Source: a virus. From it: a DNA stretch of 64,000 nucleotides. The notes beneath the pieces were generated by a model. It saw only the letters and a list, made by a program, of their open reading frames with translations. It was not told the origin of the DNA and searched no databases. The position numbers and the translations under genes were made by a program. The first letter of the stretch is position 1. Each line of letters starts with the position of its first letter. The DNA is taken from positions 64,001 to 128,000 of IMG/VR virus record IMGVR_UViG_3300035698_009252. One strand, written 5' to 3'. Below, piece by piece: positions 36,371 through 41,391 of the stretch.

Positions 36371-38761
36371 CTACTGCCGTCTACGGTCTATCGTATAGAT
36401 ATGGCACTGATTCATGTCGCTGCGACCCCAGAAAATGGTGTCACCCCGCCTTGCCACATTCCCGCCGAAGTCCCGCTGCCGGTCCTCCGCCGTCTCCCCG
36501 GTGATACTCCCCACATCGGTAAACTGGCTACCGTCATACGCCACCAGCTTGTCCGGGTCAGTTGCCGCGAAATAGACAAAGTGCTCGTCCGCCTTGGCAT
36601 CCTGGATACTCAATGTCCACGTGTCATGCAACACCTGCCAGTTACTACCGACCTTCTTGCTGATACGCCCGTCAGCCGCGAACCTCGACCCTGCCCCGGC
36701 ACCATGTCCCATGTACAGCTCATCCTGGAATACCACCAATTTCAATCCCGGAGATGGCTCGGTATGACCCGAGAACGTACCGTACACCTCGTCACCGAAG
36801 TTGGTCAGGTAATGATAATCATTCCCAAACTCAACGATGGACCGGACCAGTGCCTTAACCGGAAGTGTCAGGTAAACATGACCACTCCAGACATCAACCA
36901 CCTGTGGGTTCGTATGGAAGTTAGCCGGAGGCCGCAAGTCCCCACTGGAAGTGTATACCGGATGGCCTTGGTATACCGTCCCCGCCAAGTTCCACGGGTA
37001 CGGGCAACTATGGGCTTCCGTTAAGGCACCGTTCTCGTACACCAGGCACTTATTCCCGCCGTGCTCCGGGCAAAAGATAACCTGGTCATACCAAACAGTC
37101 GCAAGCTGCCACGTCTCTTCTGCGTCATACTTGTCATACAAGGTTTTGATGGGGCCAAAAGGAGGGTCCTCCCACATGAATATCTGGACATGCCACGGGT
37201 CCCGATAGACATTGCTGGTGCCCCAGAACAGGGCCTTGTACTTCTCGACGTACTCCATGAACGTAACCTTGTACGCATTGTCATCACTCGACCACACTTT
37301 CTTCGGGGACGAATGAACCCACTCACCCGTAGGAGGCGCATCTTCCGGGAAGTCAATCTGCTTCACCTCTAACTGTAAATCCCTCTTGTTGGCCGGAGCC
37401 TTCTCGTCATTGTCCACCAACCACATATTGACGTACAGATGCAGGTTGTCCTCTTCCGTCGGGATGTCGTCGCCCGTGTAGCTCCACTCGTCAATGACGT
37501 AATCGGAGGACGGAGGCTCGGCATAATGCCCATGGAACGACTTGAACGTAACCTTGTCGGGCTGCCATTCAATCACATGCGTCGTTGCCCCGCCATCCAA
37601 GTCCATCATCTTCTTGTGCTTGTGACCCGGCACGTCCCATGGCTGGACGCAATACTGGAGGTTGTATGACGCATTCTTCTTGCCCCAACGTGAGGCTTCG
37701 ATGTCAACTTCCTTGTCATCATCCGCCCACAGGAACATGCCCAGAACGATGTTCCGGTCGATATCGTCCAAGGATGGATTCGAGCAGTTGACGTAGAATC
37801 GGTACGTGCCGTACTTGGCCACGTCAACACACTTGGCTTCACCACACAACCACTTGCAGTTATCCTGCCGAATCTTCATATACAGACGGTTGGCATGGAT
37901 ATCCGCGTTGTATGGATGCCACCAGTTGCTCCCCGGCGCATATCTCTGCCCGTCCTGCTTGATGTCCCATTGACGGCCCATGAATGTCTGCGGGCTGCGC
38001 TTGTACATGGGGGACGTGGGTTCCGGCTGCGGGTCCGGGTCGGGCTGGGGGTCTGGGTCCGGCTGCTGTGGAGAGTCCGGGTCAACCAATTGAATGATAT
38101 TCGAGCGTTCCTGTACGCTCGTGACTCCTACCCGGTTATGGCCGCACACGCACAGCCAGACCTTGTCCGTCGTGCGATAAGCATAGTTCTCCCATGCGCC
38201 GGTAAAGATTTTCTTGTTGCCACGGTCACTCTTGAGAATCTTCTTCGCCTGAGTGTGCTGTCCTTGGAGCAACCATTCCGTCCACATCTGCGACTTCTGG
38301 CCATCCCGCTCCACGAATATCATAATGCTGCCATTCGGGTCGTTATGAATCTTGTCAGTCTTCGGCCATCTATCAGGATGGGAACCTTCCCATGACACGG
38401 TAGCGCCACCAATCTTGCCATTGCTGATATGACAAGTGATTGGCCAATTGTCTACACGGGCATCGCCACCATTCAGGGCGAAGCCAGCCGGGTTGATTGC
38501 GTCCAAAGACGGTTCGGGCTCAGGCTCTGGGTCCGGGTCTGGGTCCGGCTCTGGTTCTGGTTCTGGCTCCGGGTCCGGCTCTGGTTCTGGCTCTGGCTCC
38601 GGGTCCGGCTCTGGCTCTGGCTCTGGCTCCGGCTCCGGCTCTGGCTCTGGCTCTGGCTCCGGCTCCGGCTCTGGCTCAGGTTCTGGCTCTGGGTCCGGGT
38701 TATTGGGCTTCTTACCGCGTAAGAAATCAATTATCGACTGAAAGAAATCTGACAATGACAT
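36371..38761 (-). CDS. Multidomain protein: Pro-Glu linker, GH16-like glycoside hydrolase, C-terminal beta-propeller-like region
   Basis: [10 protein letters not shown] (GH16 ExDxE), [16 protein letters not shown]. Confidence 0.75.
38510..38700. repeat. Hexanucleotide repeat encoding (PE/PD)n
   Basis: About 30 consecutive Pro-Glu/Pro-Asp dipeptides. Confidence 0.9.
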
Positions 38762-38871: not shown

Positions 38872-41391
38872 TTACGGAGCGCAATTGTCACATTTCCCAC
38901 ACGGCCCCGACAACGACACGTCCCCAAAATGTTCGCAAACATAGGCATACCGGCAATCCCTCGTCCGGTAGAACCGCGTCAAAGCATTCAACTTCTCCAT
39001 CCGGTCCTTCCTTGAGCCATCAATCTGTACAACATCAAAGGTGTCGTCTTTATCAAGCCACACCTTGTACTTCCCACGGCCAAGTGTTTTGACAAGGCCC
39101 TTCTGCTTCAATGCCGAAATACAGGCCCCGACATTATGTACCCTGGACAATTGCCCCATGACCTTCTGAGTCATGTGTATCTCGGCAAAGTTGGCCCCAT
39201 TCGCCTCCTTGAGAGCTGTGGACTTGAGCCACTTCCAGAACCCCTCTACATCCTTGCCACTGGGATTGGTCATGTCTATAAGGAAAGTTTGGGTTCGGTA
39301 ATCATCTTCAAAATCACAAACCGTTAGACAAAAAGAATCCTTACCATCGCGCCCGGCACGCCCTACCGCCTGGAACCAGTCTTCAATGCTCTGAGACAGG
39401 CCAACGTGCACAACAAAACGAACATCAGGCCGGTCTATACCCATACCAAATGCGGAAGTCGCAACAATAATTCCACCATCCTTAGACCATTGAGTCTGGG
39501 TCTCAGCCCGTTCTGTTTGAAGAAGGCCCGCGTGATAGAACATAGCCGGAATGCCCCGTTTGCACAGGTAATCGCAAACCGCTTCCGCTTCCTTGCGCGT
39601 AGCGGCATACACAATTCCCGTCTTGAAGTCTTCAGCAACAGCGAGGACATACTCATACCGCTCGGCCCCACGCGCCTCCACCATCGCAAATTGCAAATTG
39701 GGCCGATAAACACTCTGAACGAACCTCTTGGCCTCCTCGATATGAAGCGAGCGACAAATGTCTTCCCGGACCTTTTCCGTAGCCGTAGCCGTCAAAGCAA
39801 CCACTTGCCGGGGATTCAGGCGTTCGATAACTCCGCCCAGCTCAGCATAAGCCGGTCGGAAGTCGTGCCCCCACCTGCTAATACAGTTGTGAACTAAAGA
39901 GCCATTTGCGAAGAAGTTATGACTTCCTTCAACTTCGATGTCGTAAAGCCGCACCCCAACCGGATTCTTTCCAAGGCATTCCCCGGTTGGGAGAGTGCCT
40001 CCTCGTTCGACACGCGAAACACTTTCCACCCGAGCATACGAAGAAACGACTCCTTCCGCTGGTCTGCATCCCGCACCTTCATCGCCTTGTGTGACGGGCC
40101 GTCCACTTCTATTGTGACTTTCTCCAATGGCCACGACAAGTCCAACTTGTAGTGTGTCGGATAGCCACTCCCGTCCCGACAATGTCCTGTTTTTACTATA
40201 TGGTTCAGAGAAAGTCCTCCCGCGACTGCAAGAGCAGCCTCCGGTCCCGTCGCACCTCTCCCGTTCCCTCCCCGATTCGTCTTGAACCTGTCCTGGCCCT
40301 TCGACGCCTTCGACACAGACGCCCTGACCGATTCCCTCTTCATTGGGTTGTCCCGAGTCATCCTCTCCGACGCCTCCGACCTCTTCGTCTGCGAACGCTG
40401 GCCACACAGAGTCGAACAGTGCAGAGTCCTGTACCCCGGCTTCGTGTGGAAGCTCTTCCCGCACGAAAGACATATCTTCTCTACAGTCGGAACACTTCTT
40501 GTTTTTGCCGACCCTGCCCTTTGACATGCCTGTGAACAATACCTGCTCGGAGGCCGCCCCTTTCTGAGTCGCATCTCCCGAACCTTCCCGCATTCCTCGC
40601 ACACAACTATCTGCTTTGATGATTTCATACCCAGACTGTAACTTGTCCACAGGAACTAAGCCAGTGTTTTTTACGAAAAACTCTTGCCCCCCATCGCAGT
40701 ACCCGTCCCGCCCATTTATGCGAACCTTCCACAGGTCCAGACCACGATGAAGGAACAGTCTCGCTACCTTGCCGACGACCGTATTCCCGTCATACTTCGA
40801 GATAACCTCGTCACCCACCCTGATAGAATCAATCCGGCGCTCACCGGAAGGCGTCAGAACCATCGTATCCCCGATAAAACAGTGAGCCTCATCCACGGCA
40901 AAGATGTCTACCTTCAGTTTCTCCATGGCCCGGTTAAACTCGGAGTTTCCAAAGCGCTCCGGGGACACATACAAGGCCCGCACGCCGCCCGACGAGACCT
41001 CTGCCAAGGCCAATTTCGCATCCCGCATCGGCACAGAGGAGTTGATTAGGACGGCATTGACACCAAGACCCTGGAGTTTGTCCACCTGGTCCTTCATCAA
41101 AGCAATCAACGGGCTTGCAACTACCGTCAAGGTGTCAGACAGAATCGATGGGAGTTGGTAAACCAGGGATTTCCCTGAACCCGTGGGGAATACACACAAC
41201 ACACCTTTTTCGCCCTCTATGGCCTCTGTAATGGCTTCGCGTTGCCCCTCCCGGAACTTTGTATGCCCGAATACCTTCAGGGCATCGTCAAGGCTCATTT
41301 GGGCCACCTTGGGCTTTGATATGACCGCTACCTGTGGTTGGTTACTCTTGGCGGCCCGGAGCGCCCGAACTCTTTCCAGCATGCTACTCAT
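38872..41391 (-). CDS. recQ: RecQ-family DNA helicase interrupted by an intein
   Basis: FREGQ, PTGSGKSLVYQLP, SPLIALMKDQV, VDEAH|CISRWGHDFRP, ALTATA, AFGMGIDRPDVR, GRAGRDG, CGKCDNC. Confidence 0.95.
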   Translation of the reverse strand: MSSMLERVRALRAAKSNQPQVAVISKPKVAQMSLDDALKVFGHTKFREGQREAITEAIEGEKGVLCVFPTGSGKSLVYQLPSILSDTLTVVASPLIALMKDQVDKLQGLGVNAVLINSSVPMRDAKLALAEVSSGGVRALYVSPERFGNSEFNRAMEKLKVDIFAVDEAHCFIGDTMVLTPSGERRIDSIRVGDEVISKYDGNTVVGKVARLFLHRGLDLWKVRINGRDGYCDGGQEFFVKNTGLVPVDKLQSGYEIIKADSCVRGMREGSGDATQKGAASEQVLFTGMSKGRVGKNKKCSDCREDMSFVREELPHEAGVQDSALFDSVWPAFADEEVGGVGEDDSGQPNEEGIGQGVCVEGVEGPGQVQDESGRERERCDGTGGCSCSRGRTFSEPYSKNRTLSGREWLSDTLQVGLVVAIGESHNRSGRPVTQGDEGAGCRPAEGVVSSYARVESVSRVERGGTLPTGECLGKNPVGVRLYDIEVEGSHNFFANGSLVHNCISRWGHDFRPAYAELGGVIERLNPRQVVALTATATEKVREDICRSLHIEEAKRFVQSVYRPNLQFAMVEARGAERYEYVLAVAEDFKTGIVYAATRKEAEAVCDYLCKRGIPAMFYHAGLLQTERAETQTQWSKDGGIIVATSAFGMGIDRPDVRFVVHVGLSQSIEDWFQAVGRAGRDGKDSFCLTVCDFEDDYRTQTFLIDMTNPSGKDVEGFWKWLKSTALKEANGANFAEIHMTQKVMGQLSRVHNVGACISALKQKGLVKTLGRGKYKVWLDKDDTFDVVQIDGSRKDRMEKLNALTRFYRTRDCRYAYVCEHFGDVSLSGPCGKCDNCAP
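39886..40881 (-). mobile_element. Intein (332 aa) inserted in RecQ motif II (DEAH/C)
   Basis: Starts CFIGDTMVLTP and ends LYDIEVEGSHNFFANGSLVHN, followed by extein Cys. Confidence 0.92.
39894..40628 (-). CDS. Zn-finger + DUF559/Vsr-like endonuclease encoded in an alternative frame inside the intein
   Basis: CEECG..YCSQAC, CLSCG..HCSTLC, YKLDLSW...IEVDGPSH...DQRKESFLRMLGWKVFRV. Confidence 0.85.
   Translation of the reverse strand: MKSSKQIVVCEECGKVREMRLRKGRPPSRYCSQACQRAGSAKTRSVPTVEKICLSCGKSFHTKPGYRTLHCSTLCGQRSQTKRSEASERMTRDNPMKRESVRASVSKASKGQDRFKTNRGGNGRGATGPEAALAVAGGLSLNHIVKTGHCRDGSGYPTHYKLDLSWPLEKVTIEVDGPSHKAMKVRDADQRKESFLRMLGWKVFRVSNEEALSQPGNALERIRLGCGFTTSKLKEVITSSQMAL

Follow-up and report, generated by a model that had tools for sequence, protein, structure and literature searches.

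The recQ helicase gene in the window studied here, a stretch of 64,000 nucleotides (positions 64,001 to 128,000 of the IMG/VR virus record IMGVR_UViG_3300035698_009252), carries an intein whose DNA codes in two frames. The explanation that we favour as a whole, with a probability of about 0.85, is a mobile intein that forms one unit with an overprinted endonuclease gene: the intein frame is continuous with the helicase, and the +1 frame of the same strand encodes a putative zinc-finger, Vsr-like homing endonuclease. This explanation is founded on the architecture of the locus, the predicted folds of both products, the selection seen in the two frames, the conservation of the layout across a family of related loci and the sporadic distribution of the element among recQ alleles. 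The source record is a 139.6-kb sequence from an uncultured phage with a CheckV completeness of 43%, and salt-lake metagenomes hold sequence near-identical to it.

Architecture of the recQ intein and its internal gene

The recQ gene, the parts of the intein and the internal open reading frame (ORF) are located as follows in window coordinates, with the confidence of the structural models given as pLDDT values (predicted local distance difference test).

38872-41391, minus strand: recQ helicase gene, 839 codons including the intein, with DEAD, Helicase_C and RecQ_Zn_bind domains (Pfam)
40882-41391, minus strand: N-extein, 170 aa, ending in motif II (...FAVDEAH)
39886-40881, minus strand: intein, 332 codons, from CFIGDT to SLVHN, with Hint-fold ends, Cys1, a terminal His-Asn and the Cys+1 of CISRWGHDFRP
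40629-40881, minus strand: N-terminal splicing domain (Int-N), single-coding up to the nuclease ATG, pLDDT 95-98, host-frame third positions varying most
39894-40628, minus strand: +1-frame homing-endonuclease candidate gene, 244 aa plus stop (ORF, Pfam DUF559)
40389-40628, minus strand: nuclease residues 1-80, two CxxC...CxxxC zinc-finger units, likely a DNA-binding module
39936-40268, minus strand: nuclease residues 121-231, predicted Vsr-like/DUF559 catalytic domain with the family-invariant D163, E174, D176, H180, D189 and K192
40042-40611, minus strand: intein-frame residues 91-280, predicted disordered linker, pLDDT about 46, only its stop-free state kept
39886-40041, minus strand: C-terminal splicing domain, intein residues 281-332, pLDDT 94-97, co-encoding nuclease residues 197-244
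40005-40032, minus strand: doubly constrained core, intein strand R-V-E-S-V and nuclease motif G-W-x-V-x-R-x-S-N
38872-39885, minus strand: C-extein, 337 aa plus stop, first residues CISRWGHDFRP

Both frames have exactly the extents given in an earlier sequence-only reading of this DNA, which had described an intein frame free of stops over 332 codons and an ATG-initiated ORF of 244 codons with zinc-finger and DUF559/Vsr-like parts. That reading also placed the end of the nuclease inside the C-terminal splicing block, and the stop codon lies there, 3 codons ahead of the intein end. At the other end, an in-frame stop is found 9 codons upstream of the nuclease ATG, which is the first start codon after that stop.

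The insertion splits helicase motif II between DEAH and CISRWGHDFRP, the two extein parts rebuild an intact motif, and intein-less recQ relatives read DEAHCISRWGHDFRP at the insertion site. Cys1, His331-Asn332 and Cys+1 are present as splicing residues, and C1 and N332 are invariant in 64/64 family inteins aligned. Pfam Hint and intein-splicing matches are confined to the two ends of the insert, and the isolated intein matches Hint_2 with a score of 29.7 (cut-off 28.4). The intein-frame product was modelled by AlphaFold2 with a 64-sequence alignment: residues 1-90 and 281-332 have pLDDT values of 94-98, and residues 91-280, with a pLDDT of about 46 and no secondary structure, are predicted to be disordered. 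The last strand of the N-terminal domain in the model (intein residues 86-89) extends a few codons into the overlap. According to Foldseek, the folded ends resemble the BIL, Ssp DnaB, gp41-1, Mtu RecA and NrdJ-1 inteins (E-values of 3e-7 to 1e-3). The central part of the intein frame had been described as frame-shadow sequence of about 220 residues; a structureless region is indeed predicted, but its size in the model is about 190 residues (91-280).

The product of the +1 ORF matches Pfam DUF559 (PF04480) with 36.8 bits (cut-off 20.6, E = 3.7e-9), and PHROG families annotated as HNH endonucleases match its N-terminal 100 residues only. Its AlphaFold2 model, built on a 68-sequence alignment, has a mean pLDDT of 89. 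Compared with known structures, residues 121-231 gave VIA Z-scores of 11.2 with the DUF559 protein 3hrl (root-mean-square deviation 2.2 Å over 86 residues), 10.0 with 3r3p, the catalytic domain of I-Bth0305I (88 residues), and 8.5 with the Escherichia coli Vsr protein (1cw0); the sequence profile of the nuclease matches 3hrl at 1e-9 and 3r3p at 1e-3. Thirteen residues are invariant across the 68 sequences, whose identity is about 30-40%. They include the candidate catalytic E-x-D...H...D..K set, and D163, E174, D176, H180, D189 and K192 lie within the aligned core of the profile match. The GGNG and GW-V-R-SN motifs are invariant as well. The +1 ORF is thus predicted to encode a zinc-finger and Vsr-like (DUF559/EDxHD-type) endonuclease, which folds confidently in the model.

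Selection on the two frames and occurrence across the family

Any nuclease codon with a final T that is followed by a codon beginning with AA, AG or GA creates a stop in the intein frame. None of the 68 such risky contexts in the window (0/68) follows a T-ending codon, whereas T is the last base in 23% of the other codons. When the nuclease ORF was shuffled synonymously, the intein frame acquired 11.6 stops on average and not one of 20,000 shuffles was stop-free, against the 0 stops observed. The homologues L001 and L003 show similar stop avoidance, and across 65 distinct loci with 28-63% guanine plus cytosine (GC) a T-ending codon stands in 0/4237 risky contexts, as against 25.8% elsewhere.

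Differences between the window and the homologue L005 (IMGVR_UViG_3300035698_006372) were counted by codon position and are given below for host-frame positions 1/2/3.

N-extein: 66 / 34 / 94
C-extein: 95 / 72 / 210
Int-N (single-coding): 16 / 9 / 30
Overlap, first half: 41 / 13 / 24
Overlap, second half: 34 / 16 / 10

The exteins and Int-N differ most at position 3, as is normal for a selected protein. In the overlap, the most variable position between the window and L005 is host position 1, which is position 3 of the nuclease; for the overlap, the counts by nuclease codon position are 30/35/76. For the other pairs, the first half of the overlap likewise has this switch, and, with the overlap taken as a whole, differences are most frequent at nuclease position 3 in 6/6 pairs. 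In the second half the pattern relative to the host frame is weaker (37/25/37 against L001 and 48/32/38 against L003); both frames are constrained there. For most of the overlap, the codon-position pattern demonstrates purifying selection on the nuclease, the intein frame being merely kept open. The proposal that selection keeps both frames open is therefore borne out, by the complete stop avoidance together with substitutions that peak at nuclease third positions, and the long dual coding is real, with a same-strand overlap of 245 codons.

The last 50 or so codons of the overlap encode predicted folded parts of both proteins, namely the C-terminal strands of the intein and the C-terminus of the nuclease. 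Bases 40005-40032 are shared by the R-V-E-S-V strand of the intein, which is 84-89% conserved, and the G-W-x-V-x-R-x-S-N motif of the nuclease, which is 93-100% conserved; downstream of this core, intein blocks F and G are conserved, and the tail of the nuclease that they overlap is poorly conserved. Judged by this conservation, about nine codons hold conserved motifs of both proteins, which would leave the two genes physically interlocked.

A search of IMG/VR with a 7-sequence nuclease alignment yielded at least 307 relatives, of which the best 80 of 307 were kept as loci; together with four found earlier, 84 loci were compared. In 80/84 of them (76/80 of those kept from IMG/VR) a longer host ORF contains the nuclease ORF over its entire length, and the nuclease is always in the +1 frame of this host ORF. 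Across the 65 distinct loci, the host-frame intein starts with Cys1, usually right after the Walker-B sequence "hhhhDE"; its last residues are HN, in rare cases SN, and C comes next, mostly as part of CHH. The four RecQ-group inteins are inserted after DEAH, two residues later than the family norm (after DE). The hosts include ResIII/Helicase_C helicases of superfamily 2 (one of them UvsW-like), an SNF2 ATPase, a clamp loader, a large terminase and a D12 methylase. The nuclease stop lies 3 to 25 codons ahead of the intein end, and the ATG follows the upstream nuclease-frame stop by a median of 6 codons (65 loci), mostly just before the first CxxC. Shine-Dalgarno-like motifs are found at the nuclease ATG in 44% of the loci versus 17.6% at control positions (p = 1.7e-6).

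Furthermore, 41 GenBank phage records match. The cultured carriers include Vibrio phage CP-T1 (gp10; L169, JQ177061 6842-9823), Rostov M3 (L166), about 30 Nahant/oyster Vibrio phages (among them L167, MG592463 NVP1088O_73) and Corynebacterium phage phi673 (gp43; L168). Four of these records were examined, those of CP-T1, Rostov M3, phi673 and one Nahant phage, and in 4/4 the nuclease ORF is in the +1 frame and unannotated: they annotate the helicase only and have no feature for the internal ORF. The Joint Genome Institute (JGI) annotation of L001 (421-2189) calls the nuclease ORF and starts recQ downstream of it, which truncates the helicase.

Other arrangements also occur. L020 (3376-5598), L021 and L072 show a fractured form, in which a stop closes the ORF of N-extein and Int-N, the nuclease has a gene of its own, and the C-terminal splicing part (Int-C) and the C-extein are encoded together by a further ORF, as in a split intein. 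In L024 (3437-5700), the helicase N-extein, Int-N and the nuclease share one frame of 397 aa and Int-C with the C-extein occupies another; the arrangement could result from a frameshift mutation or an assembly error, or represent another kind of split. A single relative with the nuclease in frame came to light, P0025 (831 aa, JGI), in which the intein of a UvrD-like helicase contains a DUF559 domain in its own frame and lacks zinc fingers; the search of longer proteins from which it came is weak evidence for the rarity of this form. Taken across the loci, the overprinting event is ancient and family-wide, and not specific to the recQ gene of the window.

The recQ relatives carry inteins of another type too. 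The recQ gene of L005 (2182-7116) shows a further LAGLIDADG intein in the P-loop (GK/C...HN/S), and the presence of another intein before GRAGRDG is suggested by the length of its ORF and by a match interrupted at C-extein residue 173. In L003 (4229-8197), recQ contains a LAGLIDADG intein at YQE/C...HN/CGRAGRDG. Up to three inteins would thus lie in one phage helicase gene among these relatives. A neighbouring gene of the window, on the minus strand directly downstream of recQ (36371-38761), encodes a 796-aa protein with long Pro-Glu/Pro-Asp dipeptide repeats near the N-terminus and again around residue 250.

Mobility, proposed mechanism and alternatives

The recQ genes closest to that of the window by C-extein (L086-L090 and L093, 53-61% identity) have an uninterrupted DEAH/CISRWGHDFRP sequence, and L005 (63% C-extein identity) carries the intein. 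A C-extein tree of 172 aligned residues, with 19 rows chosen from the best matches, places three intein-bearing and six intein-less alleles in one clade with support of 98/92. The fourth intein-bearing allele falls outside this clade, and branches with good support require no fewer than two gains or losses. In the comparison with L005, identity is 74% for the intein and 79% for the nuclease, versus 52-62% for the exteins, and other pairs show a similar order. This sporadic distribution, with an intein and a nuclease more conserved than the surrounding exteins, fits homing. Pairwise identities correlate at 0.38 between Int-N and the nuclease and at 0.66 between the nuclease and the extein flanks, which shows co-divergence, vertical descent and movement as a unit not being separable by these values. 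As for its origin, the invasion of a mini-intein by a free-standing endonuclease gene, put forward in the sequence-only reading, fits the many phage proteins that combine zinc fingers and DUF559 as free-standing genes as well as the fractured L020; it is plausible, if unproven.

The element would work as follows. In frame 0, translation of the recQ mRNA would give a RecQ precursor with the Hint-fold intein between DEAH and C, whose splicing halves, joined by the disordered linker of about 190 aa, would excise the intein and restore DEAHCISRWGHDFRP. In the +1 frame, ribosomes starting at the internal ATG (40628) would make a separate 244-aa zinc-finger/Vsr-like endonuclease. The nuclease gene needs no promoter of its own because it lies on the sense strand inside recQ, and internal initiation within a translated region and without a Shine-Dalgarno motif would keep the nuclease level low. 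The endonuclease would most likely cut the intein-less recQ of co-infecting relatives at the site coding for DEAH/C, and recombinational repair would then copy the intein and the nuclease gene together.

Several points weigh against this explanation. In the window copy, no Shine-Dalgarno motif was found ahead of the nuclease ATG, and such motifs are present at many other genes of the same phage; a scan for sigma-70-like promoters, the one promoter type covered, found none inside recQ. We infer the separate translation of the nuclease by internal initiation from sequence, and the cleavage target is assumed by analogy. Foldseek searches of PDB with the nuclease model gave weak E-values (best 1e-2), and the structural support rests for this reason on the Z-scores and profile matches. 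The comparison with independent Logan contigs leaves the stretch 39960-40260 uncovered. In addition, block B of the intein (40684-40695, intein residues 63-66) reads D-G-G-Q and not the canonical T-x-x-H. D-x-G-Q is found in the window and three RecQ relatives, and T-x-x-H in 60/64 family members. The splicing competence of the DxGQ RecQ subgroup is less certain, as far as sequence can tell, and for the RecQ precursor of the window it is a prediction. The block B His is normally critical for catalysis, although Tko CDC21-1 inteins are naturally without it and a bulky residue at extein position -1 can compensate (PMC6333167); in the window, the residue at this position is His. We read DxGQ as a probable working variant rather than decay, because it is conserved in the four RecQ-group sequences and Int-N is under purifying selection.

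An assembly artefact, in which two compensating indels hide an ordinary in-frame endonuclease domain, is hardly credible. The in-frame relative P0025 shows that in-frame forms are possible, but the same two-frame layout recurs in L005, L001 and L003 (79, 68 and 53% nuclease identity, respectively), in the 80/84 loci from independent assemblies and in cultured phages, and complete stop avoidance in the intein frame is not expected from an artefact. Moreover, Logan contigs from other runs are identical to the window, with no indel, over 40263-41100 and 39667-39958, which include both ends of the nuclease ORF. The independent contigs thus reveal no indel at either ORF junction, which, together with the three divergent homologues, excludes the pair of compensating indels named as a refutation in the sequence-only reading. 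A strain-variant contig (run X1) shows 7 substitutions and, at 40468-40470, lacks one nucleotide and gains one two bases away, so that both reading frames are restored within one codon.

The +1 ORF could instead be an untranslated or decaying relic of a past invasion, with only the intein frame functional. The homing-cycle model predicts such decay after fixation, and the window copy has neither a Shine-Dalgarno motif nor an internal promoter; nevertheless, substitutions concentrated at nuclease third positions, 13 residues invariant in 68 divergent sequences, the high-confidence fold predicted for the +1 protein and 244 codons that are stop-free in every relative make a relic quite improbable. 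A programmed +1 frameshift, yielding a fusion of N-extein, Int-N and nuclease, would likewise explain the missing Shine-Dalgarno motif and is suggested by L024, which has these three parts in a single frame. It was rejected as very improbable, given the nuclease-frame stops just upstream of the ATG, both here and in the family, the position of the ATG directly ahead of the first CxxC in most loci and the family-wide enrichment of Shine-Dalgarno-like motifs at this ATG. That the nuclease has been co-opted beyond homing, for instance to exclude competing phages by cutting their recQ or in general DNA processing, we hold to be unlikely. Phage homing endonucleases can mediate marker exclusion, and the correlation of 0.66 between nuclease and extein-flank identities points to an element stably tied to its host genes; against this, a sporadic presence among close recQ alleles and a conservation above that of the exteins are classic signs of homing, with which exclusion would in any case be compatible. 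Unlikely too, if somewhat less so, is an insert that no longer splices, having lost the block B Thr and His, in a RecQ that is inactive or tolerates the loop, as proposed for the insertion of ShiLan in a phage methylase (PMC11855218). DxGQ in 4/4 RecQ-group inteins, at a position normally critical for catalysis, speaks for this possibility; however, Cys1, the terminal His-Asn and Cys+1 are intact, Int-N shows host-frame purifying selection (16/9/30), DxGQ itself is kept among sequences of 51-74% identity, and natural inteins that splice without the block B His exist. Furthermore, 332 extra residues in motif II should abolish ATPase activity, yet the downstream frame is strongly maintained. We therefore retain the explanation of a mobile intein with an overprinted homing endonuclease.

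Relation to known systems and significance

The concept of an out-of-frame intein endonuclease is already published, and the window case is neither unique nor conceptually new. As cited in two later preprints (bioRxiv 10.1101/2025.01.02.630785 and bioRxiv 10.64898/2026.09.14.751524), Gorbalenya (1998) put forward that the DnaX intein of Synechocystis holds an endonuclease in an alternative ORF. Phillips, DeSimone and Gogarten described the LAGLIDADG endonuclease of cyanobacterial dnaX as a +2 ORF, supported by ratios of nonsynonymous to synonymous substitutions (dN/dS) and Shine-Dalgarno motifs (bioRxiv 10.64898/2026.09.14.751524). As in the window, the DnaX ORF is on the same strand and overlaps a disordered intein interior, in that case with Shine-Dalgarno motifs upstream (bioRxiv 10.64898/2026.09.14.751524); low dN/dS marks the endonuclease frame and high dN/dS the intein frame, and intein-free alleles coexist with intein-bearing ones. 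The DnaX system is LAGLIDADG, +2 and known from one host gene in one bacterial phylum, whereas the family described here is Vsr-like, +1 and found in phages and many host genes; its overlap, unlike that of DnaX, reaches the folded C-terminal splicing strands.

Gosselin, Arsenault, Gogarten et al. reported actinophage inteins with antisense LAGLIDADG, antisense Vsr-like (EDxHD) and same-strand frame-3 endonuclease VII-like (EndoVII-like) genes (bioRxiv 10.1101/2025.01.02.630785). These share with the window an intact splicing domain, a structureless in-frame region and a separate endonuclease ORF inside the intein, and their Vsr-like type matches 3R3P (EDxHD) by HHpred, as the window nuclease resembles 3r3p. 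Their Vsr-like genes are antisense, the only same-strand type being endonuclease VII-like in frame 3, and their hosts are DNA polymerase, a minor capsid protein, terminase and thymidylate synthase. The gene described here, in contrast, is sense and +1, has N-terminal zinc fingers and occupies the Walker-B/DExH site of helicases. Out-of-frame architectures were called rare in that work, and invasion by a free-standing gene was proposed (bioRxiv 10.1101/2025.01.02.630785); in the present family of hundreds, however, the overprinted layout is dominant.

Vsr-like endonuclease genes are also known between the halves of split inteins (Dassa et al. 2009, PMC2677866). These fractured genes are likewise phage-borne, with an endonuclease 3' end that overlaps the C-terminal part of the intein (PMC2677866), and the window intein model resembles gp41-1 and NrdJ-1, but in the window and in 80/84 loci the intein frame is continuous through the nuclease, as in a contiguous cis-splicing intein. 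I-Bth0305I, with proven homing-endonuclease activity (Taylor et al. 2011, PMC3239194), is phage-encoded and similarly built from an N-terminal DNA-binding region and a C-terminal Vsr-like catalytic domain (PMC3239194; PDB 3R3P). It resides in a group I intron of recA and not in an intein, its identity to the window protein is about 20%, and the best sequence match of the window nuclease is the DUF559 protein 3hrl rather than I-Bth0305I. ShiLan shows an out-of-frame endonuclease in a host-frame-open insertion that annotation had missed (Arsenault et al. 2025, PMC11855218), with an HNH nuclease and no splicing domains, whereas Hint-domain ends flank the overlap here. In the texts searched, we found no same-strand +1 Vsr-like intein endonuclease with zinc fingers, no dominance of such a layout within a family of hundreds at the Walker-B/DExH site and no doubly constrained junction with a C-terminal intein strand.

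To this family, the window copy adds RecQ as a host and a conserved block B variant, DxGQ. Annotation pipelines err in two ways on such loci, GenBank records keeping the helicase only and the JGI annotation keeping the nuclease and truncating recQ. The locus is a clean natural case of a long same-strand overlap in double-stranded DNA phages, in which the frames alternate in selection and a short stretch is constrained in both, and it can serve the modelling as well as the design of overlapping genes. For engineering, the structural model suggests a Hint domain that tolerates a disordered linker of about 190 aa, and the family offers an untapped set of putative zinc-finger/Vsr-like homing endonucleases aimed at the DNA of helicase motif II.

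With regard to prevalence, our results suggest that for one nuclease type overprinting is the rule and not a rarity. The +1 overlap could even have a stabilising role as an interlock and not be an accidental outcome of invasion, a tentative idea that we consider possible but on balance doubtful. If it were true, a deletion of the endonuclease gene would also destroy splicing, and hence the host helicase, and the gene would be shielded from that step of the homing cycle in which endonuclease genes are deleted or decay. Such an interlock would explain why overprinted loci (80/84) far outnumber the in-frame and fractured states, and also the invariant frame relation at 28-63% GC and its persistence down to about 30% nuclease identity.

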